Source of the DNA: a virus
Taxonomy: Duplodnaviria; Caudoviricetes
Virus record (IMG/VR): IMGVR_UViG_3300042923_000250
Coordinates: 1-60,460 of that record
DNA: 60,460 bases
Strand: one strand, 5' to 3'
Part shown: positions 2,822 to 60,183 of the stretch, one piece after another
How positions within the stretch are numbered: the first letter of the stretch is position 1
Layout of the letters: the number at the start of each line of letters is the position of its first letter
The notes under the pieces: generated by a model
What the model saw: the letters and a program-made list of their open reading frames with translations, nothing else
Databases searched by the model: none
Told to the model about the DNA's origin: nothing
Translations under genes and position numbers: made by a program

Positions 2822-3209
2822 TATGTACACGTTAAAAGAAATAAATGATAAATTGAGAAACGGTAGCTTTACCGAAAGAAATGTAGCAATGGCGATACTT
2901 ACCGATTATGCAGACGCAGAGGAACAAGGATTATTGATTAAGCTGCCGTGCAAGGTTGGGGATGAAGTCTATTTTATAAAATCGATGTTTTCATATTCAA
3001 AAAGTCCAATGAGAGGGATTGTATGTATAATTAAGACATTTTCCTCAAATGGAACGTTTACATTTAACGTTATTACTGATAACGGCAATCAAGCAAGAAC
3101 ATTTATTAATTGCGATATCGGTAAGACTGTATTCCTTACCAGAGAAGCAGCCGAAGAAGCTTTGAAAGGAAGTGTATCCGCACCAAGGATTAAAACCGCT
3201 GTCAAATGA
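2822..3209 (+). CDS. Phage hypothetical protein
   Basis: AEEQGLLIKLPCKVGD...IGKTVFLTREAAEEAL, a common clostridial phage pattern. Confidence 0.75.
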
Positions 3210-3255
3210 GATATTCCTTGACGGCCGATAAAATTATACATAACTTTGTTGAACA

Positions 3256-3285
3256 TTGACAATTGGATGTTGATAGTTGGATAAT
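3256..3285 (+). promoter_or_regulatory. Moron promoter
   Basis: TTGACA 3256-3261, GATAAT 3280-3285. Confidence 0.6.
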
Positions 3286-3321
3286 AAAACCTTATAATTA
3301 ATTCAAAAAGGAGAAAAAACA

Positions 3322-3687
3322 ATGGATTTATTTAATGAGTTAGACAGACTTCCGTACTTTTTCTATGTTTTAGGAGATGATTATAAGCTTCTTGGAGGAC
3401 AACAGACAAAACCGGACAAACCAATGTCTTTTAATATGATTTATGATTTGTGGGAAAAGATGATGAGTACTCATCAAAACAATAACCTTAATTATGAAGA
3501 TAAAGTCTATTTAGCGAAAAGCATGAAGAAGATGCGAATCTGGTGTGAAGGTCAAAATATGGCAAGGGAAGAACTAAAAGATTACATAGTCAAATTATCA
3601 GAATCGCAGAAAAAGGAATTAGAGGCACAAATTAAAATGTATAAAGATGCTCGTGAATATCACAGGCTATATGTCTTTAATAAATAG
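3322..3687 (+). CDS. Moron, hypothetical protein (121 aa)
   Basis: AT-rich ORF with AAGGAG RBS, own promoter and terminator. Confidence 0.75.
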   Translation: MDLFNELDRLPYFFYVLGDDYKLLGGQQTKPDKPMSFNMIYDLWEKMMSTHQNNNLNYEDKVYLAKSMKKMRIWCEGQNMAREELKDYIVKLSESQKKELEAQIKMYKDAREYHRLYVFNK

Positions 3688-3698
3688 TCATTGTTTTT

Positions 3699-3734
3699 AC
3701 TACCAACTATCAATATTCGGTTGGTAGTTTTTTA
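3699..3734 (+). terminator. Rho-independent terminator
   Basis: ACTACCAAC-loop-GTTGGTAGT followed by a T run. Confidence 0.75.
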
Positions 3735-3810
3735 TGAAGCAGATTACCATTCATCAACGGATTTAAGTAATTGCATAGGCGCATACTAAAATTAAAAAAG
3801 GATTCCAAGT

Positions 3811-23842: not shown

Positions 23843-24193
23843 TTAACAATTGGGGTTAAGCGAAAATCCTATTGATATTTCGTTTAGATTTAAATTTTTA
23901 TCATCAATAAAATAGTCAGCTCCGATTTTTCGGGGATCATTATTATATTTAATGATTTCATCCGGCAAATTCTCGTTGACAGCATCAAAGAACAATCCTC
24001 GGTCATTGCACCACTTGACGGCTTTTTCTGTCTGCTCACCGGTTCTGCATGTCCACAATATCAGTTTGTGACCTTCTTCACGCTTTCGAATACAAAAATC
24101 AATCACTGGCTGGATGGGTTCGCCTATCTCGGGCCATTTGTTTTCTGCCAAAGTACCATCAAAATCCACAGCATATATTTTATAATCATTCAT
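23843..24193 (-). CDS. HAD-superfamily hydrolase
   Basis: AVDFDGT, LWTCR, ADYFIDDK. Confidence 0.85.
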   Translation of the reverse strand: MNDYKIYAVDFDGTLAENKWPEIGEPIQPVIDFCIRKREEGHKLILWTCRTGEQTEKAVKWCNDRGLFFDAVNENLPDEIIKYNNDPRKIGADYFIDDKNLNLNEISIGFSLNPNC

Positions 24194-24668
24194 GTAAAGC
24201 CTCCTTAAATGGTAAATCAATCAATTCAGGATGGTTCTCATGCATCCAAATTGCTCCAAGTATATTCCAAATGAAGGCTCTGGAATGGGGTTCATCTGTA
24301 TCACCACGCAAATATTTAAAAAAGTGTCTTAGTGCGCTGTCAATGAAGCAGTGAACTGGCATACCCTTTTCCCAATTACGATCAGAATATTTTTTCGCAC
24401 CCTCTTCGTACTGCTTTGATACTTCAAGAATTGCAGTGATTATATCTGGAAATTCATCAGCCATAAGCACAAATGACTCTAAAGTATCAAAAAGACAGTC
24501 TATTGTTCCGGTATGTATATAATCATTAATATGAATAATTTCTGGCCTTTCAATAAATTTGTATATTACATCAAGGGGAAGTAAATCACATCTGCCTTTA
24601 CCCTCTGCAATATCCCTTACTGCTCCACTTTCAAATTCTCTGCGTGAACCACTATCTAAAATTGCCAT
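24186..24668 (-). CDS. dATP/dGTP diphosphohydrolase-domain (DUF5664-like) protein
   Basis: FESGAVRD..EGKGRCDLLP, GAKKYSDRNWEKG, SALRH, DEPH. Confidence 0.8.
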   Translation of the reverse strand: MAILDSGSRREFESGAVRDIAEGKGRCDLLPLDVIYKFIERPEIIHINDYIHTGTIDCLFDTLESFVLMADEFPDIITAILEVSKQYEEGAKKYSDRNWEKGMPVHCFIDSALRHFFKYLRGDTDEPHSRAFIWNILGAIWMHENHPELIDLPFKEALHE

Positions 24669-24681
24669 AATCAAATCCTCC

Positions 24682-25980
24682 TTAAATCGCCGTATACCAA
24701 GTTTCTCTTAAACCGGTTACCTCATTTCTAATATCACAAACCATTGCCCTCATGGATGAACCATATAATTGTTGGTGTTCCCATGATGATGAGCTGCAGA
24801 TTGTCGGGAAGTATCTCACCCTTGCTCCATTAATAGTTTTAACTTCCTGGTCGTGAAAGTGTCCAAGATTTACTTCTATGTACTTTGCAAATGAGATTTC
24901 TTTTCTCGCAAAATTCATAGGCATTTCAGCAATGTTCTTTTTTGGAGCATCGCCGTGATGGTATAATACAAGTGTTACGCCAAAGCGTCTGTATTTGACT
25001 GGATTAGGCTTAATATCAAACGTAACGTTGTTATCATTGCGGAATGCATTAGAAACGCTCCTTGCAAGCATATAACCACAAACACGATCGTGATTTCCTT
25101 CGGTATATATGTATTCCACTGGTGCTATTTTGCCGAGTAAAGTGATGCCGTCAATAAGAATGTCCTCTGCGCATTGCGTGATTTTTGCCATTCTTCCATC
25201 GACTTGCTGAACCGTACCCTTTGTGGTAGTGTTTGAATCGTTATCTACGTGAAGGATATCACCAAGCGAGGTTAGTATAACCCTTTTAAATTTTCTTCCT
25301 TGACAGCGATTTACAATATCATTTATACACATCAAAAAACGTTGTTTTACAATTTTTAAATCATAATCTTCGCCTGTTTCTTCTCTCCACGACATTAAAC
25401 CAACGTGCAAATCAGAAATTTTTATGTCTAATATTTCGCCGTCACTATCATACTGGATACATTCAATCGGCAGTTTATCCTTAGAATAATTCTTGGTTTC
25501 AAAATACCTATCTATATCCTCGAATGTTATATCTTGTTTTAACTTCGGGCGCACTGTAATCTTGGATTGGTACAAGAGCAGTTTTTTGCCCTGTTTAGCT
25601 TGAGTCTGCCAGAAGTTAGATTTATAAGTCACCACATCGAATTTATCACTATCAAGGTTGTGGGCCTCCATGATAATCTCAGGAGTAATCGGTTCGCCTT
25701 CCATGAGCTCGATAATCCCCTCGAAGGTTGCAGATCCGTCAGATTTATATTCAACTGATTTCGTATGAACGCAATCACTCTTGACGGTATCTTTTGGGGT
25801 TTTGACTTCAACGCCATTAATACGAAGCTTCCACTTTCTTAGTGCTCGACTGAACGTATCATAGGTGGAATTACTGATACCCCTATAATAATTATCATAA
25901 ATATCTTGTGCTGACTTGCCAGTGTTCGACATCTCAACACATTTTTGTTTGACTTGTTCGGGAATAGGTAATTTCTTCAA
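24682..25980 (-). CDS. Calcineurin-like metallophosphoesterase with N-terminal extension
   Basis: SDLHVG, LGDILH, GNHD, HHGD, GHFH. Confidence 0.85.
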   Translation of the reverse strand: MKKLPIPEQVKQKCVEMSNTGKSAQDIYDNYYRGISNSTYDTFSRALRKWKLRINGVEVKTPKDTVKSDCVHTKSVEYKSDGSATFEGIIELMEGEPITPEIIMEAHNLDSDKFDVVTYKSNFWQTQAKQGKKLLLYQSKITVRPKLKQDITFEDIDRYFETKNYSKDKLPIECIQYDSDGEILDIKISDLHVGLMSWREETGEDYDLKIVKQRFLMCINDIVNRCQGRKFKRVILTSLGDILHVDNDSNTTTKGTVQQVDGRMAKITQCAEDILIDGITLLGKIAPVEYIYTEGNHDRVCGYMLARSVSNAFRNDNNVTFDIKPNPVKYRRFGVTLVLYHHGDAPKKNIAEMPMNFARKEISFAKYIEVNLGHFHDQEVKTINGARVRYFPTICSSSSWEHQQLYGSSMRAMVCDIRNEVTGLRETWYTAI

Positions 25981-30134: not shown

Positions 30135-30136
30135 GT

Positions 30137-36349: not shown

Positions 36350-36832
36350 TTAATTGGTTTCAGTGTATTTAGGTACAAAAGTAAGTTCAGTGATTCTGTT
36401 TATAGCTTCTCTTTTTCCTTCATAATTAAGTTTTTTAAATTCTGCAATGAGTTCGTAGTCTATGCTTTCGAATTTAATGTTATCAGACAATTTTTTCATA
36501 ATAAATTCTGTTGCAATGCTTGTATCCTTTAAATCAGAATTGTAGATAGCTTGTAAGACTGGACTTTCATTTGACTGTGGCATCGAGCTTCGCTCTTTGG
36601 GAACATCATAACCCATTAACCATGCTTCATTTACATCTAACGCCATTCCTAAAATAGATAAAGTGTGTTGACCTGGTTCAACTTTTCCAGATACATATTG
36701 ACTTAAATAGTTTTTAGTGAGCTTTACATTGTATTTCTCACAGTATGGCTCGCACTTTTTAATAATATCAACTTGTTTTAAATTGCGTTCTTCCATAATT
36801 TTTTTAAGCCTAATCGACGTGCTCTCTTTCAT
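36350..36832 (-). CDS. CI-like repressor (HTH, no S24 peptidase domain)
   Basis: RLKKIMEERNLKQVDI...LSQYVSGKVEP...LDVNEAWLMGYDVP. Confidence 0.88.
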   Translation of the reverse strand: MKESTSIRLKKIMEERNLKQVDIIKKCEPYCEKYNVKLTKNYLSQYVSGKVEPGQHTLSILGMALDVNEAWLMGYDVPKERSSMPQSNESPVLQAIYNSDLKDTSIATEFIMKKLSDNIKFESIDYELIAEFKKLNYEGKREAINRITELTFVPKYTETN

Positions 36833-37274: not shown

Positions 37275-37481
37275 ATGAAAAAACAATTCAAATTTCCTTA
37301 TCGTCTTCCGCCTAATGTAAAAATCACTCATGTTTTACCAGACGGCACGGAAGTAGATAGCATAGAAGGAATGAGCATTCCATATTTACCGGAAACACAC
37401 GCGATATACGAACTATTTGCAAAATATGAAAGCATAGCTGAGCGCAAGAAAGGAAGTGAAAAAGTTGCAATTAAAAATTGA
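37275..37481 (+). CDS. Hypothetical protein
   Basis: ATG after GGAGG; ITHVLPDGTEVDSIEG. Confidence 0.65.
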   Translation: MKKQFKFPYRLPPNVKITHVLPDGTEVDSIEGMSIPYLPETHAIYELFAKYESIAERKKGSEKVAIKN

Positions 37482-38427: not shown

Positions 38428-38430
38428 GAA

Positions 38431-39264
38431 ATGAATATGAAAGGGAAATTTACGATTGAGGATTACCAAAACATGAAATACGAATACCGTCAGATTAACT
38501 CCAAGTTTATTGTATCTGATACCGACTACCAGCGATTGCTCAAAACCGAAAGAGTGAAGAAAATCATTAATGAATTTAATCCAATGAAGGTTAATCCACC
38601 AAAGTTGAGTCTTCGTGATGGTAAGTTTTATGTGTGGGATGGTCAAACAACTGCTACAGTTTTAAAACATATCAACGGAGGAAACGACATTGTAATAAAT
38701 TGTCTGGTTTATTGTGGACTAACGAAAGAGGATGAGGGTTGGTTATTTATTACCCAGGACAACGGTAAAACCAAAGTCAGCGGAAATGACAAAATCAAAG
38801 CATCGTACACTTTAAAGCTTAATGATTCCGATGTTCAAATGGTTGATATCGCAAGAAGTCTCGGGCTGATTATTGATTTCGCCGGGAGCAACGGAGTTAA
38901 CAAAATAATTTGTCTCGCCACTCTCAAATACATATTTTCTCATACTGACATTGACACATATAAAAACATCTTGACGGTTGCAAAAGAAAGTTGGTTTGGT
39001 CAGCCCGAAAGTTTTAGTGGCGAAATTCTTAAGGGTCTGCATATTGTGTTTGATGTTTATAAAGATGAAATCAGTGTATCAACTATGATTAAACAGTTAA
39101 GAAACAAGACCACACCCAATGCTATAAAGGCGAAGGGAAACAACAACCTTTCACTAAGAGGTAATTCCAAATACGCCATTGAGATTGTGGACATATATAA
39201 TCATAACTTAACCGCTAAAAACAAATTGGACAAGTCGTTATTGTTTGCAAAGGACAACGGATAA
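38431..39264 (+). CDS. ParB-like (DGQH-type, DUF6551-like) protein
   Basis: YQR...RVKKI...F...YVWDGQTT...E..LF..Q. Confidence 0.7.
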   Translation: MNMKGKFTIEDYQNMKYEYRQINSKFIVSDTDYQRLLKTERVKKIINEFNPMKVNPPKLSLRDGKFYVWDGQTTATVLKHINGGNDIVINCLVYCGLTKEDEGWLFITQDNGKTKVSGNDKIKASYTLKLNDSDVQMVDIARSLGLIIDFAGSNGVNKIICLATLKYIFSHTDIDTYKNILTVAKESWFGQPESFSGEILKGLHIVFDVYKDEISVSTMIKQLRNKTTPNAIKAKGNNNLSLRGNSKYAIEIVDIYNHNLTAKNKLDKSLLFAKDNG

Positions 39265-40484: not shown

Positions 40485-40715
40485 ATGAGAAAATTACAGC
40501 GATCAATTTTAAGGCATCAAGCTTACAGAGGAACAGGTGGAATTGAGTTGTTTCATTATCTCTGGAAGAAACTAAGAATTAAGCAGGGCAAATGGAAGTT
40601 TAATTCTAAACGATTGAACAATCAACAATCAAAAACTGCCGTCAAGGCTGAAACAGGCAAGGATACAACATGGAGTAAGTTAATCAACTTTTTGAAGAAT
40701 AGAGGGAGGAAATAA
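40485..40715 (+). CDS. Basic hypothetical protein
   Basis: ORF with RBS in operon. Confidence 0.6.
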   Translation: MRKLQRSILRHQAYRGTGGIELFHYLWKKLRIKQGKWKFNSKRLNNQQSKTAVKAETGKDTTWSKLINFLKNRGRK

Positions 40716-40717: not shown

Positions 40718-42943
40718 ATGGGTGGAAATTTTAAAGCAAAATGTGTTGATTTACAAGGTGCAAACAAAGATGGTTACACCGTAGGCAAGGTATACGAGAT
40801 CATAGACGGTCAATTTGTGGATGACCAAGGTAGCAAAAGACCATTTGGCGGATGCTTAAAGAAATTTGAGGACTTGGTAGATTACTCGATGTCAAAGTGG
40901 GAACTTGTAACCGAAAAGCAATATTCCGGTGAATACATATCAATAAAGCGTTGCAAGAAGGACAAGCGTGTCGTTGCGGTTCTGTCTATGGATGGTAAGT
41001 TTCAGAAGTCCGCTAATGTAAAGCTGAAGGACTTTGATGGGGATTTCGGTAAGGCAGCTAAGGCAGCGGTGGAGAAATTGTTAGGTGTCATCTCAAGACC
41101 AGAGACAGCCGTTAATATTACCGCAGAGGACACTCCACTGACGGCAGACGGTTTCAATGTTGGGGATAGAGTACATCACGAAACGTATGGAAATGGCACC
41201 GTGCTTGGCGTTAATAGTGGAAATCCTCCAATAGCCGTTGAGTTTGATAATGCAATGGGCGGTCACGATTGCTGTTTACTCGGAACAGGACATGGAAAAG
41301 ACAACCATTGTTGGTGGTGTAGACCAAGCGAACTTAAATTAGTAGAAACTGCCGTCAATGAACCCACCTCCTTCGATTGGCAATCCTTCAAATCCGGTAA
41401 ATGCGCCGTACATTGCGATACTGAGGAAAAGGCTATGGAGTTTTTGAAGGAATGTGATGCTCAGGGGATTAAGTGGGCTGATGGAATTAAAGCCACCAAT
41501 AAAACAAACTTTAAAGGCGCATCAAGTTATGGAATTTTGTATTTTGGTGACAGTAGCTGTCTTACATATTCCATATACCCGGATCTGCATACAAGAGATA
41601 TCAAAATCGACTACATCCCCACAAAACCCACTGTCAAAGAAGTGAAGCGCCTCGCGAAACCAGATGAGTATGTAAAGATTGTCGATGCACAAAAAGTTCC
41701 AAGGACAGATGGTGTTCCAGAATATAAGAATGGCGATATCTTGAAGATACTTGAATCTGAGAATGGAATGTCAAAATACGGTGAAGGATATGCAGGAAAT
41801 GGATGGGCAAGAAATTTATATAATAGCGAGTATGTAGTTCTCGAAGATTACATTCCGGAGGACAAGCCCGCTGTCAAAGAAATTAATCGCACTGCAAAAG
41901 TCAATGAATACGTTAAGGCACTTAGAGGCGAGGGCGGATTTATTCACCCAGATACGATTTATAAAGTCGAGAGGGTTTGCGGCGTTAGTGTTTATGTTAC
42001 TGACCCAACCGGAGAGTATTCGTGTCAAAACTCCATTTCTCATGATAATTATATTATCCTTGAAAATTACAATCCAATTAAGGAAGTTAAACGTCCTGCA
42101 AAGGTTGGTGAGTGGATTAAGGTTATTGGTGATGGAGGACATCCAAACGTTAAGACTGGAGAAATAGCAAAGGTTACTTCACTGGTTGAGGATGAACATG
42201 GGTGGGTTCGTGTGAATGGATATAAACAATACGGAGGCGGATGTATAAAGTTAGATCAATATGTTGTCCTAGAAAACTACCAACCCGAAACAACTCCCGC
42301 TGTCAAAGCAGAATTCCGTAAGGCAAAGGTTGGCGACAAGATTGAGGTTGTGAAAAAGCGTAAATGTCATGTTTCAGCCGAGATTGGGAATATTCACACA
42401 GTTAATCGTGTCGACCGTCAAGGGCTTTACACTGATAATAACTCAATTTATTTTTGGGACGAGAACGAAGAATATATCATCGTCGAAGAAGCCAAACCAG
42501 AGGTTAAGAGGGTTGGCCGTCAAGCAAGAACGGGTGAATATGTTGAAGTTATCAATGCAAGTAGTATCCCCATCACTAACGGTAAGCCAGAATATAAAAA
42601 TGGCGATGTATTAAAAATCATCGAAGGTGGACACCAAGCGAGATATGCCGAGGGTTCATCGGATGACGGTAGACGCAGAGTGTTAAACACGGAAGAATAT
42701 GTGGTCTTGGAAAACTATCAGCCAGAGGTTAAGAGAGTTAAGCGTTCAGCTACAAAAAATGAATGGATTGAAATAGCTAAAAACGCTGACAGTCGAGTAA
42801 ACGAAGGTGAAAAATATCAAGTAGTTGATACTGACGTTTCGGGCAGATGGGTTGATATTAAACACCCCAAGGGAACGAATAAAGGCAAATTATGCTTGTA
42901 CACATCGGAATATGTAGTCCTCGAAAACTATCAACCAAAGTAA
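40718..42943 (+). CDS. Mosaic 741-aa protein with six tandem SH3/KOW-like repeats
   Basis: Repeat VKEVKR.AKVGE.IKV...EYVVLENYQP six times after about four other small domains. Confidence 0.8.
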   Translation: MGGNFKAKCVDLQGANKDGYTVGKVYEIIDGQFVDDQGSKRPFGGCLKKFEDLVDYSMSKWELVTEKQYSGEYISIKRCKKDKRVVAVLSMDGKFQKSANVKLKDFDGDFGKAAKAAVEKLLGVISRPETAVNITAEDTPLTADGFNVGDRVHHETYGNGTVLGVNSGNPPIAVEFDNAMGGHDCCLLGTGHGKDNHCWWCRPSELKLVETAVNEPTSFDWQSFKSGKCAVHCDTEEKAMEFLKECDAQGIKWADGIKATNKTNFKGASSYGILYFGDSSCLTYSIYPDLHTRDIKIDYIPTKPTVKEVKRLAKPDEYVKIVDAQKVPRTDGVPEYKNGDILKILESENGMSKYGEGYAGNGWARNLYNSEYVVLEDYIPEDKPAVKEINRTAKVNEYVKALRGEGGFIHPDTIYKVERVCGVSVYVTDPTGEYSCQNSISHDNYIILENYNPIKEVKRPAKVGEWIKVIGDGGHPNVKTGEIAKVTSLVEDEHGWVRVNGYKQYGGGCIKLDQYVVLENYQPETTPAVKAEFRKAKVGDKIEVVKKRKCHVSAEIGNIHTVNRVDRQGLYTDNNSIYFWDENEEYIIVEEAKPEVKRVGRQARTGEYVEVINASSIPITNGKPEYKNGDVLKIIEGGHQARYAEGSSDDGRRRVLNTEEYVVLENYQPEVKRVKRSATKNEWIEIAKNADSRVNEGEKYQVVDTDVSGRWVDIKHPKGTNKGKLCLYTSEYVVLENYQPK

Positions 42944-42966
42944 TCCAACAGAAAAGGGGAATAAGA

Positions 42967-44922
42967 ATGAACATCATATTAAAACGCTTACATATGGAAA
43001 ACTTCAAAATTTTCCAGAATGTCACATTAAATTTTTCACAGCTGACAAAAATTTTCGCACAGAATTATAAAGGTAAATCAAGTATTGTTGATGGATTTTT
43101 TTGGACAATGTTTGGAAAATCATCAACAGGCAACTCCGAGGGTAAGCAGTTTCACCCTCGGAGGTACGATGAAAACGGAGTGGATATCGATCGTGTTGAC
43201 ATTGTGGTGGAATTACTTCTTGAGATAGACGGCAGAGAAATAATCATCCGTAAAGTCCAGAAACAAAATTGGGTTCGCAAAAGAAGGGATGAAATCGAGA
43301 CTTATGAGGGCGACAAGAATTTCTACTTCTGGAACGAAGTACCCACCTCTGAAACCGAACACAAGAAAAAGGTTGCCGAGATTATCGACGAGGAAGTTTT
43401 CAAAATGATAACTAATCCTCATGCTTTTGTCGGTAAGAAGCAAGACGAACAGAGAAAATTCCTAGTTGAGAAAGTCGCAAAGATTACGGATGCCGATGTT
43501 TTCTCACTTGACGGTAAGTTTTTAGAACTCTCCGAAAAAATGAAATCCGAACAACGAACCATCGAAGAAATCAAGGCTCTTAATAAGAAGGAACTGAGTG
43601 GATATAAGGAATCGCAAGTATCTATTCCCACTCGAATTGATGAAGTTTCGAAATCGATTATCGAGGTGGATTTTTCCGCACAGGAATTAGCATTAGGGGC
43701 GCTCAAGGAGCGGTTATCCGAGGTTGAGTTGAAAATTTCCGACACCTCAAAATCCTATGAGGAAGTTGGAAAGTTGAAAACCGAAATCGCACAATATAAA
43801 TCCAAAATTGCCGAAATCGAAAGAACCGAAAAAGACCTGCTGTCAACGAAAAGACGTGAAGCGTCTACTAAACTCGACAACATCACATATACACTGCTAA
43901 AACAATCCACACAAAATAACACTGTCAACAAGGACATTGAATTACTCACCGAAAAGATATCATCCTCAGAAATATTTTTCGACACATTGAGAAAACGGTA
44001 TGCCGAAGAGAAATCAAAGGAAATGGATCCAAGCCAGAATATTTGTCCGGTATGCAGCCAGGAGTTTCCGCCGGATAAGAAAGCCGAAATGCTCACACAG
44101 TTTGAATCCGATAAGAAGCAAAAGCTTCACACCACTAATCTTGACGGTCAGAAAATATCGGAAGAATTGAAATCCAATAAATCTAAGTTGGATGAACTCA
44201 AAAAGCAACTAACCAGTTTGACCGCAGAGGTATTGGGGTTAACCGAACAAGAAACCGCCGTCAAAGAAGAGTTAAACAAGCTACCAACCGAGATTGATTT
44301 ATCCGCTAATCAAGAATACGCCGATTTCAAATCAACCGTTTCTGCCCTCGAATTCAGCCTTAAAGAGACAGAGGAAAGTCTAGTTGATACAAATACACTT
44401 AAGACTAATTTGACCGCCCAGAAAGCCGAAATTCAAAGCCAAATTGAGATTGTCCAAGGAGTGTTGGCATCAAAGCAGCATATTGATGATGCAAAAGACA
44501 GAGTGATTGAGTTAAGGGAAGAATTAAGACAATCTACCGGAAAGGCTGCTGAATGTGAAAGGTTGGACTTCCTATTAGAAAAGTTCGAAAAAGCCAAGAT
44601 GGATTTACTCTCCGAGAGAATTAACCAGAAATTTAAGGTTGTTAAATGGCAGTTATTCAGAACTCAAAAAAATGGCGGTATCGAGAATGTTTGTGTGGCT
44701 ATGATACATGGTTCGCCATATGGCGAAAACACCACATCGACCACTGAGCGATTAATGGCGGGGTTAGATATTATCGGCACGCTACAAGAAATTTACGAGG
44801 TTAAGGCTCCTATTTGGGTTGATAACGCAGAGAGTTATAACGACTTCAACATCCCTCAAATGGGTTGTCAAATGGTTCTATTGTCAGTATCTACGGATAC
44901 GGAAATTAAAGTGGAGGAATAA
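42967..44922 (+). CDS. SMC/Rad50(SbcC)-like AAA ATPase
   Basis: MENFK, NYKGKSS Walker A, coiled coil with CPVC hook, IWVDNAE Walker B. Confidence 0.88.
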   Translation: MNIILKRLHMENFKIFQNVTLNFSQLTKIFAQNYKGKSSIVDGFFWTMFGKSSTGNSEGKQFHPRRYDENGVDIDRVDIVVELLLEIDGREIIIRKVQKQNWVRKRRDEIETYEGDKNFYFWNEVPTSETEHKKKVAEIIDEEVFKMITNPHAFVGKKQDEQRKFLVEKVAKITDADVFSLDGKFLELSEKMKSEQRTIEEIKALNKKELSGYKESQVSIPTRIDEVSKSIIEVDFSAQELALGALKERLSEVELKISDTSKSYEEVGKLKTEIAQYKSKIAEIERTEKDLLSTKRREASTKLDNITYTLLKQSTQNNTVNKDIELLTEKISSSEIFFDTLRKRYAEEKSKEMDPSQNICPVCSQEFPPDKKAEMLTQFESDKKQKLHTTNLDGQKISEELKSNKSKLDELKKQLTSLTAEVLGLTEQETAVKEELNKLPTEIDLSANQEYADFKSTVSALEFSLKETEESLVDTNTLKTNLTAQKAEIQSQIEIVQGVLASKQHIDDAKDRVIELREELRQSTGKAAECERLDFLLEKFEKAKMDLLSERINQKFKVVKWQLFRTQKNGGIENVCVAMIHGSPYGENTTSTTERLMAGLDIIGTLQEIYEVKAPIWVDNAESYNDFNIPQMGCQMVLLSVSTDTEIKVEE

Positions 44923-51407: not shown

Positions 51408-51781
51408 GTAATCAAAAACCATCCACCTACATAGAAGCCTTCCTCAACTTCATCGACTCCGCAAAATCCTCATATCAATTCGCCTACGACACCGTGGGCG
51501 AAGAGGACAAGCGATTACAAGATTATCTTCATGAGTTGGAGTTAGCCGAGGGTAAATCAGAGAAGGGTAAGGCTTCCACGAAGTTACGAAATAGTCGGAT
51601 TAGTCGGAGGATTAACAAAGATATAACACTTGAATATGAGGATATCGTTAATTTCTTCAACGAACCGAGAAACCGGGATACACTCAATCAACTTCGACAG
51701 CTTCTAGGTAGGCAGCGAAAAACCGAAAGTTATCTTTACGGTGAGAGGATTTATAAGCCGAGAAAGGATAAGGTAAATTGA
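51404..51781 (+). CDS. Hypothetical phage protein
   Basis: LQDYLHELEL...RRINKD...RIYKPR. Confidence 0.75.
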   Translation: MSNQKPSTYIEAFLNFIDSAKSSYQFAYDTVGEEDKRLQDYLHELELAEGKSEKGKASTKLRNSRISRRINKDITLEYEDIVNFFNEPRNRDTLNQLRQLLGRQRKTESYLYGERIYKPRKDKVN

Positions 51782-52626
51782 ACGAAAGTAACTATACGGT
51801 GTATATGCATATAACACCGAACGGGAAAAAATACATAGGCGTAACCAAACAAAAGTTAAGGGCAAGGTGGAAAAACGGTATTGGCTATAAACATAATCCA
51901 CTGTTTTATAAAGCTGTACTAAAATACGGCTGGGATAATATTCAACATATTGTACTACTCACTAATTTATCAAAACAAGATGCCGAGACAAATGAAATAC
52001 ATTTAATATCGGAACACAAAAGTAATCATCGGGATTTTGGATACAACATAGAAAACGGAGGTAACTGTTGCGGAACTCACAGCGAAGAAACAAAAAGAAA
52101 AATTGGTGCTAAAAGTAAGGGAAATCAGATTTGCAAAGGTCGTAAATTATCTAAATGGCACATCGAACAATTAAGAAAAGCGAATTTGGGACATGCAAGA
52201 TATAAAGGATGTCATCATTCAAAAGAAACTAAACTTAAAATGTCGGAAAGTGCAAAAAGGTATAAGAAAACTGAGCTGCATAGACTGCACATCAAGGAAA
52301 GCAGACGAGACACACATGGAATAAATAATCCTATGTACGGCAAACTCCAATCAGCTGAAACAAAGATCAAGATAAGCAATGCTTTAAAAGGAAGAAAGGC
52401 TACGCAAGAGCAGATTACGGCTATGTCTGAGAGGGCAAGAAAAAGAAAAGTGATTAAACTCGACATATACGGCAATGCAATTTGTGAATATGAAAGCTTA
52501 AAAGTTGCAGGCGAGGAAAACCATGTATTTCCTCAAAACATAGGATTGTGCTGTAAAAATAATAGCAAAACTATTGGTGGTTATAAATGGAGGTATGTAA
52601 ATGAACAGTCTGACCATACAGGTTGA
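51778..52626 (+). CDS. GIY-YIG homing endonuclease with NUMOD3/NUMOD1 repeats
   Basis: VYMH..PNGKKYIG.T, GYNI..GG, HSEETKRKI repeats, GGYKWRY. Confidence 0.88.
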   Translation: MNESNYTVYMHITPNGKKYIGVTKQKLRARWKNGIGYKHNPLFYKAVLKYGWDNIQHIVLLTNLSKQDAETNEIHLISEHKSNHRDFGYNIENGGNCCGTHSEETKRKIGAKSKGNQICKGRKLSKWHIEQLRKANLGHARYKGCHHSKETKLKMSESAKRYKKTELHRLHIKESRRDTHGINNPMYGKLQSAETKIKISNALKGRKATQEQITAMSERARKRKVIKLDIYGNAICEYESLKVAGEENHVFPQNIGLCCKNNSKTIGGYKWRYVNEQSDHTG

Positions 52627-53173
52627 CAGCAGGGAGAAGGCTAGAGCAATAACAAAAATTATCGCTGAATTTGAACGTCAAGGAATTAAGTATTACATAA
52701 GCAAATTGTGGACGGGTGATTATATGAGTTTAGACAATCCCAGACTGATAATTGACAGGAAACAATCGCTTTCCGAGACTTGTTCAAATGTATGTCAACA
52801 ACACGTTAGGTTTAGAAAAGAGTTGGTGCGAGCAAATGAGATGGGTATAAAGCTTATTATCTTGGTTGAGCATGGCGGCAACATTAAATCTCTTGAAGAT
52901 GTGAAATCATGGATAAACCCGAGAATTTTCCTCTATGAAAAGAAAATCCGTAAGGAATGGAATATATCGAAGGATGCTGATTTTCAGACCGAGATTACCG
53001 AGCTGAAATCCCATGGTGCAAAAATTGTCCGCGGGCCCACTACGGGAGAAGAGTTATACAAGGCAATGGTTACGATGCAAGAGAAATACGGTTGCCAATT
53101 CGTATTTACTGATAAAAAATCATGCGGTCAAATAATTATAGAGTTGTTGGGCGGTGATTCACATGATGATTAG
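52601..53173 (+). CDS. ERCC4-domain nuclease (resolvase-like)
   Basis: VDSREK, GDY, IDRK, RFRKEL.RA, ILVEH. Confidence 0.85.
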   Translation: MNSLTIQVDSREKARAITKIIAEFERQGIKYYISKLWTGDYMSLDNPRLIIDRKQSLSETCSNVCQQHVRFRKELVRANEMGIKLIILVEHGGNIKSLEDVKSWINPRIFLYEKKIRKEWNISKDADFQTEITELKSHGAKIVRGPTTGEELYKAMVTMQEKYGCQFVFTDKKSCGQIIIELLGGDSHDD

Positions 53174-53588: not shown

Positions 53589-53816
53589 ATGAGTAAAGTT
53601 ATTGTTAAAATCAAAGACGAAGATGAAAACAGAATATACAGCGTAACCGAAAGAGATTGTGTTTTTAAATGTCCGTCATGTGGAAAAGAAAATAAAGTTA
53701 ATAAAACTAATGTTGAAAATCCTCCGATATGTAAATGCGGTCACAAAATGACATTTCGTTGGTGGGCTGACAGGGAAGATATTGAGTTTGAAGAACTCGA
53801 TGAAGTGAATGACTAA
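53589..53816 (+). CDS. Zinc-ribbon protein
   Basis: FKCPSCG...CKCG. Confidence 0.6.
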   Translation: MSKVIVKIKDEDENRIYSVTERDCVFKCPSCGKENKVNKTNVENPPICKCGHKMTFRWWADREDIEFEELDEVND

Positions 53817-54339
53817 AGAAGATTTCTATATCCTCCGCAACTCAATAACTATGCGTCAAGTAGCAGGGTATTACGGATTTCGCATTGACCGAAAAGGTTT
53901 CATCAAGTGTCCGTTTCATGGAAATGGCAGTGAGCGGACACCAAGCCTTAAGATTTTTCCAGAGTTTAGAGGTTTTCACTGCAAGGGATGCGGTCAAGGC
54001 GGCGATGTTACGAAGTTTGTTGAACTCTATGAAAATGTTACTCAAAAGGAAGCTGCCATCCTGCTATCTCAGAGATTTAACATTCCTATATCAGACAACT
54101 CCGAGATACCCGAGGAAGTCCTACATAGGGCGAAACAAGCCGAATTAGAGCGACAGGGTAAACTTGCACGGCAAATCGAAATTCAAAGCGAATTAAGGCA
54201 AATAGCAACGTTGATAAAGGGATATGAGGGCATTCGCTTGACAGCAGTTCCCTTCTCTGAAATTTGGTGTTACACCCAGAACGAATTACCGAAACTCATT
54301 GGAAGATGGGAATACCTATTTAGTGAAATGAGGAAATAA
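53809..54339 (+). CDS. CHC2 zinc-finger (primase ZBD-only) protein
   Basis: CPFH...ERTPSL...FHCKGCGQGGDV. Confidence 0.88.
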   Translation: MTKEDFYILRNSITMRQVAGYYGFRIDRKGFIKCPFHGNGSERTPSLKIFPEFRGFHCKGCGQGGDVTKFVELYENVTQKEAAILLSQRFNIPISDNSEIPEEVLHRAKQAELERQGKLARQIEIQSELRQIATLIKGYEGIRLTAVPFSEIWCYTQNELPKLIGRWEYLFSEMRK

Positions 54340-54377: not shown

Positions 54378-54836
54378 ATGACGAAACCAATAATTGACGT
54401 ATGTTGCGGAAGTAAAATGTTTTGGTTTGACAAGGAAAATGAAAAAGTAATTTTTATGGACAATAGGCAGTTCGAAGATACTCTTTGCGATGGAAGAAAG
54501 CTTATCATAAACCCCGATGTTTTAGGAGATTTCAGACATATCCCGTATGAAGATAATTCGTTCAAGATGGTCGTGTTTGACCCTCCACATTTAATAAAAG
54601 TTGGTGAAAAATCTTGGTTGGCCAAGAAGTACGGAAAACTAAACGAAACATGGGCAAGCGATATAAAACAAGGCTTTAATGAGTGCATGAGAGTTTTGGA
54701 TTGCAACGGAGTCTTGATTTTCAAATGGAACGAGGAGCAAATTAAATTAAAACAAATACTTGATGCAATAGATTACAAACCTTTATTTGGCGACAGGAGA
54801 GGAAAAACACATTGGCTAGTATTTATGAAAATATAG
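54378..54836 (+). CDS. SAM-dependent amino-methyltransferase (putative DNA MTase)
   Basis: IDVCCGSKMFW, VVFDPPH, LIFKW. Confidence 0.8.
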   Translation: MTKPIIDVCCGSKMFWFDKENEKVIFMDNRQFEDTLCDGRKLIINPDVLGDFRHIPYEDNSFKMVVFDPPHLIKVGEKSWLAKKYGKLNETWASDIKQGFNECMRVLDCNGVLIFKWNEEQIKLKQILDAIDYKPLFGDRRGKTHWLVFMKI

Positions 54837-54873: not shown

Positions 54874-56487
54874 GTGCCAAAAGATATAAAAGATATGAAC
54901 TCCGACGATGTCATATCAACCGAAACGTTTTGTTGGGCGTTTGATATAGAAAATTTATTCCTTCGGGAACAAACTATATCTGCATTGGAAGACCAAGCTG
55001 ATAAGTTAGGTATCAAAACAAAATTTGGGAAGCTCCTCACCGCATTTAAAGCCGAACGAAAGAGATTTGAAACCGAGAATAAACCCAAGCCAAATTATCC
55101 CGACAAGGAAGAACCCGATGACGGACAACCCAATAAAGCCAAATGGCATGAATACAACAAAGATGGAACCCCTATCAATGTAATGGATGCTAAGTTGGTT
55201 GATTATATCATAACAAATTATCACTTGTTTGTAATTTCGAAAATGCCATATATCTACGAGAATGGAGTCTACCGAATTGATGATACAGAAACCAGATTAA
55301 AGGCAATCATCCAAGAGTTAATACACGAAAGGTTGATAACAATCAATGTGGTTAATAGGATTTACGGACTGATTATTTCCAATGACAGGCTCCAAAGATA
55401 TTATGAGGACTTAAACAATATCCCGAGACATTGGATTAATTTTAAGAATTGTTACTTTGATGTAATTGAGTGGGAGGAAATCGAACACGACCCAAGGTAT
55501 TTAACAATAAATCAGATACCTCATGAGTTTCAAAAGGATGCAGAGTCAACAGGTGAGGTTACGGAAAATTTCTTGGAATTTGCAGTACCCGATAAAGCTG
55601 ACCGAGAAGTTATCTGGCAATATTTTGGTTACTCCATGACAACAGATTGTAGCTTGCAGAAGTTTCTAATCCTCAAAGGCCAAGGCGGAACAGGAAAGTC
55701 ATTATTGATAAAAATTATTGAAACGATTGTCGGCAGAGAAAATTCTAGTAGTATTTCTCTTCAACAACTCAATGAAAAGTTTTACCCGTATATGCTCCTG
55801 GGGAAATTACTTAACGCTTGCGCCGATATCCCATCGAAAGCTATGGAAGCAGTTGATGGAATAAAGAAAGCAACAGGCGAAGATAGTTTATTTGCAGAGA
55901 AAAAAGGTAAGGATGGATTTTCTTTCAACTCCTACGCAAAGTTGATTTTCTCAGCAAATGAAATCCCCATTAATATAGAAGAAAAATCCGAAGCACTCTA
56001 CCGCCGGATGATGATTATCAAGATGGAAAATAAGCCGGAGAAGAAAGACCCTTATCTCTGGAGTAAATTAAAAAAGGAAATCGATTACGACATTATGGCA
56101 GCTTGCAAAGCACTTAAGAGAATGTACGAGAATGGAAAAATCACTGAAAGCCAAAACGTCCTTGATAATGTCACAGAAGTACACATGGAAGCTGACAATG
56201 TTATGGCATTCTTGGGAGAACGAACCAAGAAATTGATTGGAAAATCCACAACCACATCCGATTTATTCGAGGAGTACGAAAAATATTGTAAGGACAATGG
56301 TCGTAATCCTATGGGTAGTCATGGTTTCCACCGGAATATGAAGAATAAAGGTTACATCAAGAAGAAAACAAGTATGAGTTGGAAGTATGAAGATATTGTG
56401 ATTTTGGATGAAACAGAAACGGCTGAAAATGAAGGGTTTGTAACTATTGATGAAGCAGATAGAGAGAAGTTGCCTTGGGAGGTATAA
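54874..56487 (+). CDS. D5/P4-family SF3 helicase
   Basis: INFKN D5_N, GQGGTGKS, KKATGED, FSANEIP, RR. Confidence 0.9.
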   Translation: MPKDIKDMNSDDVISTETFCWAFDIENLFLREQTISALEDQADKLGIKTKFGKLLTAFKAERKRFETENKPKPNYPDKEEPDDGQPNKAKWHEYNKDGTPINVMDAKLVDYIITNYHLFVISKMPYIYENGVYRIDDTETRLKAIIQELIHERLITINVVNRIYGLIISNDRLQRYYEDLNNIPRHWINFKNCYFDVIEWEEIEHDPRYLTINQIPHEFQKDAESTGEVTENFLEFAVPDKADREVIWQYFGYSMTTDCSLQKFLILKGQGGTGKSLLIKIIETIVGRENSSSISLQQLNEKFYPYMLLGKLLNACADIPSKAMEAVDGIKKATGEDSLFAEKKGKDGFSFNSYAKLIFSANEIPINIEEKSEALYRRMMIIKMENKPEKKDPYLWSKLKKEIDYDIMAACKALKRMYENGKITESQNVLDNVTEVHMEADNVMAFLGERTKKLIGKSTTTSDLFEEYEKYCKDNGRNPMGSHGFHRNMKNKGYIKKKTSMSWKYEDIVILDETETAENEGFVTIDEADREKLPWEV

Positions 56488-57542: not shown

Positions 57543-57992
57543 ATGAAATATACAGTAGAGCAGAAAGCTCAAGTTATGGCACTGCAAAATCAAGGCAATA
57601 TGGTGGCATGTGATTTTGGAGATATGGTCTTAATTACAGAAGGACACATCGGATATTACATAAAAAAGAAAGATTTAATTATAAACTACACAAAACTTAA
57701 AAAACCAATATCCTCAGCAGATCATTTGAAACCGGAAGCAATTTTTAAAGCAACAACTCAGGCTAAGAAAACCAGAAATGTATTCTTAATACCGAACGGA
57801 AAAATGGCAATAAAACTAGTAACTGATGATGGCAAAAAGGCATGGGTTAATATGAGCTATTTAAAAACATTCGGAGATTTTCCCTATTACAGAATATCCG
57901 GAGAAACCGAAGCCATATATGTAGTCGATATTAGAAATAATCCAATTGGAATTGTTATGCCAATGAGAATATACGACAATGAATCCGATTAA
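57543..57992 (+). CDS. Hypothetical protein with a beta-clamp-like C-terminus
   Basis: WVNMSYL...GIVMPMRI. Confidence 0.55.
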   Translation: MKYTVEQKAQVMALQNQGNMVACDFGDMVLITEGHIGYYIKKKDLIINYTKLKKPISSADHLKPEAIFKATTQAKKTRNVFLIPNGKMAIKLVTDDGKKAWVNMSYLKTFGDFPYYRISGETEAIYVVDIRNNPIGIVMPMRIYDNESD

Positions 57993-58002
57993 GGAGGCTA
58001 TC

Positions 58003-58179
58003 ATGAAAATAACAATTGAATGTACAGCAGCCGAACAAGCAGAAATAAAACGCAACCTTAAAATTAACCAGAGTGACACAGAGATAACTTATACACAAGC
58101 AATACATGACAATCCGGAGGATATGACCTGCGGGGAATATGCCTTGGGGTTGATTGAGCGGGTGATTACGGAGGATTGA
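58003..58179 (+). CDS. Hypothetical protein (paralog of a short ORF near 53405-53570)
   Basis: Both contain PEDMTCGEY. Confidence 0.55.
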   Translation: MKITIECTAAEQAEIKRNLKINQSDTEITYTQAIHDNPEDMTCGEYALGLIERVITED

Positions 58180-58180
58180 T

Positions 58181-59173
58181 ATGTTACAGATACTTGAATT
58201 ATTCGGAGGTATAGGAAGTCCAAGGGTAGCACTAAGGAATATTGGCGTTCCGGTAAAATCTATTGATTATGTGGAAATAGATGAAAAGGCGGTTCGGTCA
58301 TACAATGCAATGTTTGCAAATGAGCTAACGCATAAAACTCAATCAGTAGTCGGATGGAATTTAATGCCGGATATTCTCATTCATGGATCGCCTTGCCAGA
58401 CATTTTCAATTGCCGGAAAGCAAACAGGGGCAGACGAGGGTAGTGGAACAACATCAAGCCTTATGTGGGAAACTATACATATCATTCAACAGATGGGTAC
58501 ATGGAAGCCTAGATTTGTTATTTGGGAGAATGTTAAGAATGTTTTGAGCAAACATATGATACATAATTTCAATCGCTATTTAAGCGAAATGGAAGCTTTA
58601 GGGTATACAAATAGTTTCGAAATATTAGACGCGAGAGAGTTCGGCCTACCTCAGGGGAGAGAAAGAGTATTTACTATTAGTTGTTTAGATAAAACACATT
58701 TCAGGTTTGATAATTTAATACGAACACCCATGAGGCACATACTCGAATTTCTACAACAAAACAATGAGGTAAGTGATATATATACACTCACTCAGCCAAG
58801 CATGCTCAACAAGATTAATTATCAAGGAAAAGACTTTAGCGGGCTAGAAATAATAAAAGATCAGTGCAAAACAATTACATGTAAACAGCTTAGGTGCCCA
58901 AACAGCGGAATAATCGATTTGGGTAATGGAAAATACAGATTACTCACAGAGCTTGAATGTTGGAGATTACAAGGATATTCAGACGAAGATTATTGCAATG
59001 CATTAAAGGTTAATCCGAGTCAGCCAGGGAAAATGAATGGCGCAATGTATAAGCAAGCCGGAAACTCTATACCGGTACCGATATTTGAAAGTATTTTCCG
59101 AAAAATTATTCTAGGAGAAACACAAGGACAGCTCACAGGGCAAATGTCAATCACTGATTGGCTAACAATTTAG
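58181..59173 (+). CDS. DNA (cytosine-5) methyltransferase
   Basis: LELFGGIG, GSPCQ, WENV, PQGRERVF, KQAGNS. Confidence 0.93.
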   Translation: MLQILELFGGIGSPRVALRNIGVPVKSIDYVEIDEKAVRSYNAMFANELTHKTQSVVGWNLMPDILIHGSPCQTFSIAGKQTGADEGSGTTSSLMWETIHIIQQMGTWKPRFVIWENVKNVLSKHMIHNFNRYLSEMEALGYTNSFEILDAREFGLPQGRERVFTISCLDKTHFRFDNLIRTPMRHILEFLQQNNEVSDIYTLTQPSMLNKINYQGKDFSGLEIIKDQCKTITCKQLRCPNSGIIDLGNGKYRLLTELECWRLQGYSDEDYCNALKVNPSQPGKMNGAMYKQAGNSIPVPIFESIFRKIILGETQGQLTGQMSITDWLTI

Positions 59174-59522
59174 ATTTGCATAGGAGGATAACCCACCATG
59201 AAAGGGGTAAACCATGAATAATAAAAACACCAAAGTAACAATATTCGCAGAACCCAAAATTTTATACTCAAAACATAATTTTGGTAATTTTACCATTAAA
59301 CCTATCGTAATTAAGGATGGAGTAGTACATACAGCGAGTAATAAGCAGTTGTCAGTAGAGGGAGGGAGATAATATGCCAAAACGAACCGTAACCTACCCA
59401 ATGCGCATCAGCAAAGGCGAGCAGAAAATGAACAGCAATAAACAATATGATAAATACATAAAGCATCCTAGTAAGATTAATCCGGTGTTTCTGGAAAATC
59501 ATTATGAATTGGAGGGGAAGAA

Positions 59523-59873
59523 GTGAGTGATTTAATCAGTAGACAAGCAGTATTGGAATATCTATCGGAGTTATGTGAAACAAAAGATACTTCGGCATAC
59601 GGAATGCAGTTAACAGGAAATTACACGGATATGAAGTCGAAACTTGCAGAAAGAGATTGCGTAAATGGTATTATCGAAAATATTAGAGGATTTAATTGTG
59701 CTTATGATGTGGATAAGGTTGTGGAGCAGTTAGAAGAACGCAAAGGAGATAATATTCGTTATGCAAAACTAAAAGGCAATTCAGATTATAAGAAAATAGG
59801 ACATATTTGCAGAAGCGATGAAGATGATTATGCCATTCGTATAGTGAAAGGAGCTGTCAAGGATGATATTTAA
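59523..59873 (+). CDS. Hypothetical phage protein
   Basis: DLISRQAVL...AYDVDKVVEQLE...AIRIVKG. Confidence 0.75.
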   Translation: MSDLISRQAVLEYLSELCETKDTSAYGMQLTGNYTDMKSKLAERDCVNGIIENIRGFNCAYDVDKVVEQLEERKGDNIRYAKLKGNSDYKKIGHICRSDEDDYAIRIVKGAVKDDI

Positions 59874-60183
59874 AATATTGGTTGTATTCTTACTCATTAT
59901 GATACTTCTTGATTTAGATGCGATTATTAGACTGCTAAGAGCATCAAAGGAAGGAGCTGTCAAGGATGAATGATATATTAATCGAAGCCGGAAAATTACA
60001 GGATGAATATGACAAGTTAGTTAGAAACAGAAAGCTCACGAAAAAAGCATTATGTGATTTATGTATACCTTTCAGAGATAAATACGGATTAACCGACATG
60101 CAGACGTTAAAAATTGCACGAAGAGAATTATCAATAACCCAGATAGTTGATTTTATACAGAGGGAAGGAGCTGTCAAGGATGA
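59848..60183 (+). repeat. Three copies of the gene-junction repeat AAGGAGCTGTCAAGGATGA
   Basis: 59848-59866, 59951-59969 and 60165-60183; each contains RBS + GCTGTCAA + ATG. Confidence 0.9.

Follow-up and report, generated by a model that had tools for sequence, protein, structure and literature searches.

The 60,460-nucleotide (nt) stretch of DNA considered here, referred to as the window, is the whole of the IMG/VR virus record IMGVR_UViG_3300042923_000250, a member of the Caudoviricetes. The genome of this temperate, siphovirus-type phage is written through with an asymmetric octamer, GCYGTCAA, which is selected at the level of the DNA and is private to one phage lineage. The likeliest reader of this word, proposed here tentatively, is a stand-alone primase-type zinc-finger protein encoded in the early block of the phage (53809-54339), for which the word would be a priming or loading signal on single-stranded DNA. 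The window harbors 54 exact copies of the octamer, 33 on the plus strand and 21 on the minus strand (Table 1). The original prediction, made by eye, had put the number at about 50, and all 13 of the coordinates it offered as examples are exact. Shuffles that preserve dinucleotide content yield 2.51 ± 1.83 copies and never more than 9, so that none of 100 reach the observed number. One of the two forms of the word, GCTGTCAA, is with 32 copies the commonest octamer of the entire genome, and the other, GCCGTCAA, ranks fifth with 22.

Markov models place the expected numbers of GCTGTCAA and GCCGTCAA at 1.4 and 0.9, respectively, at order 0, and at 2.6 and 2.2 at order 3. The original estimate assumed a G+C content of about 36%; the genome is 37.5% G+C. 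Expectations rise to 14.2 and 8.8 at order 5 and to 25.3 and 15.1 at order 6, but these higher values are circular, because the models are then conditioned on 6- and 7-mers that are almost wholly fragments of the word itself; in the window, GCTGTCA is followed by A in 32 of 38 occurrences. A more stringent null model is a codon-preserving shuffle that keeps all proteins and the codon usage of each gene intact. Over 300 rounds it gives 17.66 ± 2.60 copies with a maximum of 26, a number that includes eight intergenic copies that this procedure cannot move, so that the enrichment survives the shuffle. It follows that the proteins also bear an imprint of the word, but that most of the excess is synonymous.

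The choice of codons in individual contexts leads to the same view. The tripeptide Ala-Val-Lys/Asn (AV[KN]) is the context that permits the word most often, and 18 of its 27 occurrences are encoded by the word, against 1.6 expected from codon usage, while GTC accounts for just 14% of valine codons. Similarly, the word encodes 9 of 17 Leu-Thr-Ala (LTA) contexts (1.8 expected) and 11 of 56 [FLIV]D[GS] contexts (1.3 expected), and copies occupy all five of the reading frames in which it is free of a stop codon. Based on the codon shuffle, the use of all five frames and the excess in these three contexts, selection on the word acts on the DNA rather than on the protein, as had been predicted, and it overrides codon choice. 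The codon shuffle and the context counts exclude an artefact of coding or composition.

The anatomy of the word was determined from a pooled set of 221 copies from four genomes, and its full form is approximately T-GC[C/T>G]GTCAA-nG. At position 3, C and T are about equally frequent and G is tolerated (GCGGTCAA, 37 observed and 5.5 expected), and position 1 tolerates A (ACYGTCAA, 68 observed and 22 expected). All other single substitutions in the pooled set are at background. The ACYGTCAA near-matches noted originally are real. In the window, the corresponding counts are 15 for ACCGTCAA, 6 for ACTGTCAA and 8 for GCGGTCAA, the remaining single substitutions again being at background. A T precedes the word (position -1) in 72% of the pooled sites and a G is found at +2 in 56%. 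No signal extends beyond about 11 bp, and there is no information content outside positions -5 to +9 of these sites. The word carries about 14 bits and is not a palindrome, a sharp and asymmetric specificity as for a monomeric or single-strand reader.

The pooled sites have no bias toward strand, gene direction or intergenic DNA: 95 are in sense orientation relative to the gene that contains them, 103 are antisense and 23 are intergenic, where non-coding DNA makes up about 10% of the sequence. This neutral orientation excludes a role at the RNA level or as a promoter or terminator. A sigma-70-type promoter, to which the first letters of the reverse word (TTGAC) could belong, was also rejected directly, as matches to a -10 element 16-18 bp downstream are no better than at 5000 random positions, and regular spacing of the sites was not detected. 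Per strand, the strict word occurs once per 1.8-2.9 kb and the loose word once per 1.2-1.5 kb. At 59853-60177, three copies lie in a repeated junction of about 20 nt that precedes successive small genes and consists of a ribosome-binding-site-like GGAAGGA, the word, and then GGATGA.

The word is private to one phage lineage. Besides the window, three long contigs are rich in it: a 63-kb contig (G001:C2, which includes locus L083) with 74 of the 279 copies in its 4.8-Mb metagenome-assembled genome (MAG), a 61-kb viral contig (G213) with 57, and a 21.4-kb contig (L187) with 38. A set of 91 loci of 4 kb or more, terminase-based or reference, contains just three rich ones: L083 (29 copies in 21.6 kb), L013 (4 in 4.8 kb) and L014 (6 in 6.8 kb). 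Taken together, the 14 metagenome contigs from the alignment of the zinc-finger protein (55-69% identity) are also rich, with 52 copies in 36.4 kb; 13 of them bear at least one copy, the exception being a contig of 1.1 kb. The density of the word in motif-rich phages is 0.9-1.8 per kb. Six long relatives with terminases 69-76% identical are motif-poor (3-9 copies per 45-84 kb), as are 76 of the 78 loci found via the SbcC-like protein of the phage (0-3 copies), and no other octamer of comparable excess is present in those 76 loci. Dulem virus 39 and Clostridium phage Maintenon are also word-poor.

Within the lineage, sites are retained in place. Conservation was judged in codon alignments and required the same aligned column. 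In 33 gene pairs shared with G001:C2 (62% nt identity), 11 of 24 window sites are conserved in this way, compared with 6% of all 8-mers that are identical; in 37 gene pairs shared with G213 (69% nt identity), the numbers are 13 of 27 sites and 13.7% of all 8-mers. Where shared sites differ, the difference is often solely at the C/T position. To judge from these alignments, individual sites are under purifying selection. Genes common to other motif-rich phages have 1.08 copies per kb, and genes found only in the window have 0.45; the latter include the ligase, a tail-fibre-region gene, the integrase, the GIY-YIG endonuclease and both methyltransferases. This agrees with the earlier suggestion that word-free genes look like newer arrivals. 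The ligase, integrase, CI-like, GIY-YIG and C5-methyltransferase genes indeed contain no strict copy within them, the copy at 52623 straddling the GIY-YIG stop codon and the start of the next gene.

The same word is not a feature of likely host chromosomes. Across 201 genomes from the same family as G001, the MAG with the C2 phage contig, it is 0.5-3.3 times as frequent as a reversed-word control, and its density peaks at 0.25 copies per kb. The highest ratio belongs to G034 (397 kb read), where the two word variants rank 466 and 6358 of 17102 octamers at Markov order 3 and the z-score of the word is about 0 at order 5, while 62 of the 79 copies lie in one direction, tracking the coding strand (63 antisense, 14 sense). 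The non-phage contigs of G001 (379 kb, with the same G+C content as the phage contig) have 15 copies where about 18 are expected. There is therefore no host-level enrichment in the sampled genomes of the likely host family or in the G001 MAG, a result that covers only the genomes searched. In Escherichia coli, Chi itself is given in PMC3784561 as over-represented only about 2.3-fold (observed/expected), so modest host ratios alone would not exclude a host signal, but none is apparent from the rank and Markov tests. The uptake-like host signal envisaged in the original prediction is not supported by these genomes. A polar motif of the host, such as KOPS or SRS, was also rejected, as the word points forward 18 times and in reverse 11 times in 400 kb of a replichore-like contig (G118:C1) and enrichment is lacking in the sampled genomes of the host family.

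These properties require a reader that acts at the DNA level, is indifferent to transcription, recognizes an asymmetric word carrying about 14 bits, and is either possessed or required by this lineage alone. Such a reader may be tied to the lineage's own early replication-recombination block, and the word would be read on DNA, not on RNA or protein. A tblastn comparison at 1e-5 identified an early block common to the window, G001:C2, G213 and L187 (Table 1). The 176-residue zinc-finger protein is the sole member of this shared block with a recognizable domain that reads nucleic-acid sequence, matching Pfam Zn_ribbon_DnaG at 1.5e-13 and the dnaG domain of TIGR01391 at 4e-14. Its structural model, with a predicted local distance difference test score (pLDDT) of 84.5, consists of a zinc-binding domain followed by a helical hairpin. 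The first ~100 residues match the zinc-binding domain of Bacillus stearothermophilus DnaG (1d0q) with a template modeling (TM) score of 0.77 and a root-mean-square deviation of 2.1 Å, and the fold also matches 2au3. All 15 homologues compared retain the CHC2 ligands without change. The protein is 55-69% identical across 18 contigs, and 16 of the 17 other than the window bear at least one strict copy of the word. The zinc-binding domain of the T7 primase is described as recognizing 5'-(G/T)2GTC-3' (PMC12839067), and an 8-nt recognition site is on record for the primase of phage NrS-1 (PMC8718748). The core of the T7 site, GTC, is contained in the word.

From these observations we infer, tentatively, both the identity of the reader and an outcome in priming or loading. 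The zinc-finger protein would recognize the asymmetric word on unwound single-stranded DNA, on either strand, and the word would mark places where a primase and helicase start or are loaded. Its partners could be the neighboring P4/D5-type or another helicase, or the catalytic domain of the host DnaG acting in trans. Phage DNA would then be primed about every 1-2 kb per strand. Okazaki fragments are of a scale similar to the density of the word on each strand. A bolder version, which is doubtful, is that the lineage labels its genome with a private word of 8-11 nt and that a zinc finger devoid of a catalytic domain steers any available primase or helicase to it, including the host DnaG in trans; if true, a sequence tag gives phage DNA preferential replication.

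Several observations weigh against the zinc-finger protein as the reader of a priming signal. The 176-residue protein contains no catalytic primase or TOPRIM RNA-polymerase domain, and its neighbor varies, being a P4/D5-type protein in the window and G001:C2, a DUF927/Cch-type protein in L187, and a PAPS-reductase-like protein in G213. A stand-alone zinc-finger gene with 30-36% identity lies beside a helicase in two cultured phages of Lachnospiraceae, Ruminococcus phage phiRg507T2_3 and Roseburia phage Jekyll, and neither has a comparably enriched octamer (top z-scores of 8-11, with counts of 7-8). Known DnaG-type primases are described, in literature that includes PMC12839067 and PMC2910064, as needing only trinucleotides, and no enrichment would therefore be required. 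Some ten other early genes are inherited together with the zinc-finger gene, which co-occurrence thus cannot distinguish from them. The spacing of the word is random and Poisson-like, both per strand and overall (coefficient of variation 0.86-1.27, about 0.97 under the null model), and per-strand gaps of 8-9 kb exist. Finally, counts made by hand show no strand switch around an iteron cluster at 29069-29197, the two halves of the circle having 16 plus and 10 minus copies versus 17 plus and 11 minus.

Homologues of the zinc-finger protein at 28-46% identity are present in ten viral contigs, all without the word, and the 401 family genomes contain no homologue above 46% identity except in G001:C2. 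The first 189 residues of the neighboring helicase protein match no primase catalytic family. A structural model of this D5-like protein is unusable (pLDDT 33), and searching viral contigs with it as the query found nothing.

Other members of the genome have less claim to the role of reader. The pair of ParB-like proteins that had been put forward as candidates (37456-39264) has no homologue in G001:C2, G213 or L187 at 1e-5 by tblastn, and as the word is not palindromic and neither gene (37456-38427 and 38431-39264) has a match in these contigs, a ParB-parS system was rejected. Sharing across the lineage was likewise not found for both methyltransferases, the integrase and the HNH gene. The SbcD-like gene was rejected as the determinant, as a prophage in G169 with a 58%-identical copy and a capsid gene 71% identical has no word in 140 kb. 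The suggestion of stoperator-like sites fares no better, the copies having neither an orientation to transcription nor a preference for intergenic DNA, and the CI-like gene (36350-36832) has no match in G001:C2 and 27% identity over 63% of its length in G213. The 741-residue protein is an unlikely reader because it is only 31-34% identical across the lineage while the word is invariant. Its counterparts (L099:1106-3328, L142:7451-10009 and L187:7541-9736) form a fast-diverging family with no family assignment, made up of one conserved central domain and a varying number of ~60-residue Tudor/SH3-like modules that end in 'EYVVLENY'. Pfam gives only weak Tudor/SH3-like hints for this protein, an Atlas search gave no match at 0.9 or above by features and none at a TM score of 0.5 or above by structure, and a profile of four homologues searched against the PDB found nothing.

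Different machinery could read the word. A Chi-like signal, a close second to the zinc-finger reading though rather unlikely in itself, would be read in one orientation by a helicase-nuclease that enters at DNA ends, which would then turn from degrading DNA to protecting or recombining it; candidates are a host enzyme of the AddAB/RecBCD type and the SbcC/SbcD-like pair encoded by the phage. With the word on both strands all round the genome, protection of circularly permuted DNA would work from either end, and the circular assembly is compatible with permuted ends. The word is asymmetric, and the commonest octamer and the next octamers that overlap it form the pattern known for Chi in phages LLS and P1. 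Phages with recombinases but without a RecBCD inhibitor also over-represent Chi, according to PMC3784561, and no Gam-like inhibitor is among the 70 window proteins scanned. The SbcC-like and SbcD-like genes are common to the lineage. The word-free G169 prophage with its SbcD-like gene speaks against a Chi-like signal, as does the lack of a host-level signal in the 201 family genomes, G034 or the non-phage contigs of G001, although a host Chi in a genus outside this sample is possible. Moreover, orientation is unbiased here, whereas 20 of 23 LLS copies share one direction. Alternatively, the copies could be double-stranded binding sites for a small phage protein that coats, compacts, segregates or shields the genome, which is another close rival although unlikely in itself. 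Conserved site positions, a genome-wide spread and the absence of an orientation rule would all suit such a protein, and several small proteins without a family are common to the four long motif-rich contigs; the candidates are the basic 76-residue product and the 125- and 80-residue products listed in Table 1, with two of the small proteins strongly basic. These candidates have no match to a DNA-binding family, even at E-values up to 5 in Pfam and 0.1 in NCBIfam, the sites do not cluster, the ParB-like genes are not lineage-wide, and most dimeric binders use symmetric sites, whereas the word is not palindromic.

That a sequence-specific DNA modification targets the word, or that its dense copies serve as a self-mark by which a phage nuclease would tell phage DNA from host DNA or a host defence would be blunted, is improbable. 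These phages do carry methyltransferases and PAPS-reductase-like, ParB-like and nucleotide-metabolism genes, and the C/T at position 3 might fit a methylated C that decays to T. Nevertheless, no modification gene is common to all motif-rich genomes: G001:C2 lacks counterparts of both methyltransferases and of the ParB-like genes in the window, and the PAPS-reductase-like genes were seen in G213 only. The targets of known modifications are not known to be over-represented in genomes that encode the modifying enzyme, which also counts against this idea. Least probable, and very much so, is a non-adaptive drive such as biased mismatch repair or gene conversion, in which the word has no function of its own. 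A slow drive would give the same higher density in long-resident genes than in recent arrivals, but the conservation in position of about half of the sites at 62-69% nt identity and the sharp specificity over eight positions are difficult to reconcile with it, and no shared repair enzyme of the needed kind was seen.

Table 1. All 54 exact GCYGTCAA copies in the window, followed by genes of the early block and the SbcD-like gene. "Shared" denotes a position shared with G001:C2 in the alignment with that contig; "common to four" denotes the four long motif-rich contigs.
Feature	Position	Strand	Context
GCTGTCAA	3198..3205	+	sense, AVK, gene 2799-3209
GCCGTCAA	3218..3225	-	intergenic; convergent pair with 3198
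GCCGTCAA	4816..4823	+	antisense in endolysin gene
GCCGTCAA	5438..5445	-	sense, AVK
GCTGTCAA	5587..5594	-	sense, AVK
GCTGTCAA	5611..5618	+	antisense, LTA
GCCGTCAA	10286..10293	-	sense frame 2
GCTGTCAA	11701..11708	-	tape measure gene
GCTGTCAA	13205..13212	-	tape measure gene
GCTGTCAA	14089..14096	+	tape measure gene; shared
GCCGTCAA	15657..15664	+	
GCTGTCAA	15905..15912	-	shared
GCTGTCAA	16993..17000	+	
GCCGTCAA	19330..19337	+	
GCTGTCAA	20246..20253	+	portal gene
GCCGTCAA	23014..23021	+	terminase large subunit; shared
GCTGTCAA	23976..23983	-	
GCCGTCAA	24015..24022	-	shared
GCTGTCAA	24336..24343	+	
GCCGTCAA	25147..25154	+	shared
GCTGTCAA	25300..25307	-	
GCTGTCAA	26016..26023	+	intergenic
GCTGTCAA	26121..26128	-	intergenic
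GCTGTCAA	27169..27176	+	intergenic
GCTGTCAA	28461..28468	+	intergenic
GCCGTCAA	30079..30086	-	shared
GCCGTCAA	30471..30478	+	
GCCGTCAA	31238..31245	-	
GCTGTCAA	33341..33348	+	
GCCGTCAA	37510..37517	-	
GCTGTCAA	37667..37674	-	
GCTGTCAA	40205..40212	-	
GCCGTCAA	40638..40645	+	
GCCGTCAA	41351..41358	+	
GCTGTCAA	41870..41877	+	
GCTGTCAA	42299..42306	+	
GCCGTCAA	42516..42523	+	
GCTGTCAA	43839..43846	+	shared
GCCGTCAA	44257..44264	+	
GCCGTCAA	45666..45673	+	
GCCGTCAA	45789..45796	-	
GCTGTCAA	45864..45871	+	shared
GCTGTCAA	48069..48076	+	
GCCGTCAA	49271..49278	+	
GCTGTCAA	49434..49441	-	shared
GCCGTCAA	49903..49910	+	intergenic
GCTGTCAA	50363..50370	-	shared
GCCGTCAA	51318..51325	+	intergenic
GCTGTCAA	52623..52630	-	GIY-YIG stop and start of next gene
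GCTGTCAA	54238..54245	-	inside zinc-finger gene; shared
GCTGTCAA	57253..57260	+	
GCTGTCAA	59853..59860	+	repeated gene-junction context GGA-GCTGTCAA-GGATGA
GCTGTCAA	59956..59963	+	same junction context, intergenic
GCTGTCAA	60170..60177	+	same junction context
Early-block protein, 76 residues, basic	40485-40715		common to four
741-residue protein, repeated Tudor/SH3-like modules	40718..42943	+	lineage-wide, 31-34% identical by tblastn
SbcC/Rad50-like ATPase	42892..44922	+	64-73% identical in motif-rich genomes; at most 42% in 76 motif-poor loci
75-residue protein, MBL-fold hydrolase, SSB, 101-residue protein			early block, common to four
Early-block protein, 125 residues	51404-51781		common to four
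ERCC4-type nuclease	52601..53173	+	early block, all motif-rich genomes
176-residue zinc-finger protein	53809..54339	+	early block; candidate reader
P4/D5-type primase-helicase C-terminal region	54874..56487	+	TIGR01613, DUF5906, Pox_D5
Early-block protein, 80 residues	56494-56736		common to four
SbcD-like exonuclease, phrog_704	24682..25980	-	common to three long motif-rich genomes

The record is organized as follows. Positions 1-127 of the window are identical to 60334-60460, and from this 127-bp overlap of the two ends the assembly is circular, with a length of about 60.3 kb (60,333 bp). The minus strand at 4.8-28 kb encodes the packaging and structural genes, the serine integrase and CI-like genes lie at 34-37 kb, and the early replication-recombination block runs on the plus strand from 37 kb round the circle to 4.7 kb. 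Relatives by terminase reside in genomes and prophages of the Lachnospiraceae type. The one sequencing run listed with this DNA bears the label soil metagenome and is probably its source, and no RNA run is listed with it. A megablast search with 12 kb of the window against phage records gave no match. In a search of the 401 genomes for CRISPR spacers or prophages with 20 kb of the window (two candidates scored per genome), similarity of the SSB dominated the matches, which gave no indication of the host.

The late-gene segment (4.8-36.8 kb in the window, 5.4-35.8 kb in G001:C2) is inverted relative to the early block; this inversion separates the window and G213 from G001:C2, in which nearly all genes lie on one strand. 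Three genes lie between those for the small and large terminase subunits (23843-25980), an unusual location that is also found in G001:C2 and G213, and they encode the SbcD-like exonuclease, a protein with a MazG-like dATP/dGTP diphosphohydrolase domain, and a BT0820-type HAD phosphatase. The minus strand also carries two tRNA genes (26536-26610 and 26780-26850), one for tRNA-Asn and the other with an anticodon that ARAGORN could not assign. Six exact direct copies of TACACAAGTATA (0.29 expected) lie within 130 bp at 29069-29197, between the HNH gene and the genes at 29273-31913. It is the only iteron-like cluster, at which replication may originate or terminase may bind. Two insertions interrupt the conserved early block, both without the word and both absent from G001:C2: the gene of the GIY-YIG homing endonuclease (51778-52626), and a small methyltransferase gene (54378-54836) between the zinc-finger and helicase genes.

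The importance of the word lies in the strength of the selection on it and in its confinement. Selection overrides codon choice in two thirds of Ala-Val-Lys/Asn tripeptides, and the word is stable to about 62% nt identity. The identity of its reader would reveal how a phage discriminates its own DNA from that of the host, or how it organizes its own replication or repair, and the word and its reader would together give a portable tag-and-reader pair. A literature search for the four octamer strings, which was not exhaustive, found no treatment of the word as a signal among the papers listed, and no printed explanation was found for a phage-private, genome-wide word.

Among known systems, the cluster A mycobacteriophages have stoperators, 13-bp sites to which the immunity repressor binds and whose orientation follows transcription. 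Stoperators resemble the present word in that tens of copies of an asymmetric word are dispersed through the genome of a temperate phage, but here the orientation is neutral and repressor-like genes are not lineage-wide. The DNA uptake sequences of the Neisseriaceae and Pasteurellaceae mark the bacterial chromosome. Like the present word they occur about once per kb, on both strands, mostly within genes, and are written over codon choice; the present word, however, marks the phage alone. Primase sites, such as those of T7 gp4 and NrS-1, are also short asymmetric words on single-stranded DNA, and the phage has both the GTC core and an encoded DnaG-type domain. Known sites are 3-5 nt and need no enrichment, whereas the zinc finger here lacks a catalytic domain and priming is only proposed. 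The NrS-1 octamer is a rare site, and its authors report a GTG site as more efficient (PMC8718748). The resemblance to primase sites thus consists of the zinc finger and the GTC core only. In phages LLS and P1, Chi is described as the commonest octamer, occurring once per 1.9 kb, with the next octamers overlapping it by 7 nt (PMC12315714). These Chi-rich phages, and lambdoid phages without RecBCD inhibitors, share with the window an asymmetric top octamer found about once per 1-2 kb, at 20-30 times chance. In those phages it is the host's own Chi, enriched in the host, whereas here no sampled genome of the host family, nor the MAG with one member of the lineage, is enriched. LLS copies also share an orientation and gather near one end, and the copies here do neither. 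In its behavior the word is thus similar to an uptake sequence or to the Chi of Chi-rich phages, but it is not a host-chromosome signal in any genome examined. Known words that are selected genome-wide, such as Chi and the uptake sequences, are read by machines of the host, and here the word belongs to the phage alone.

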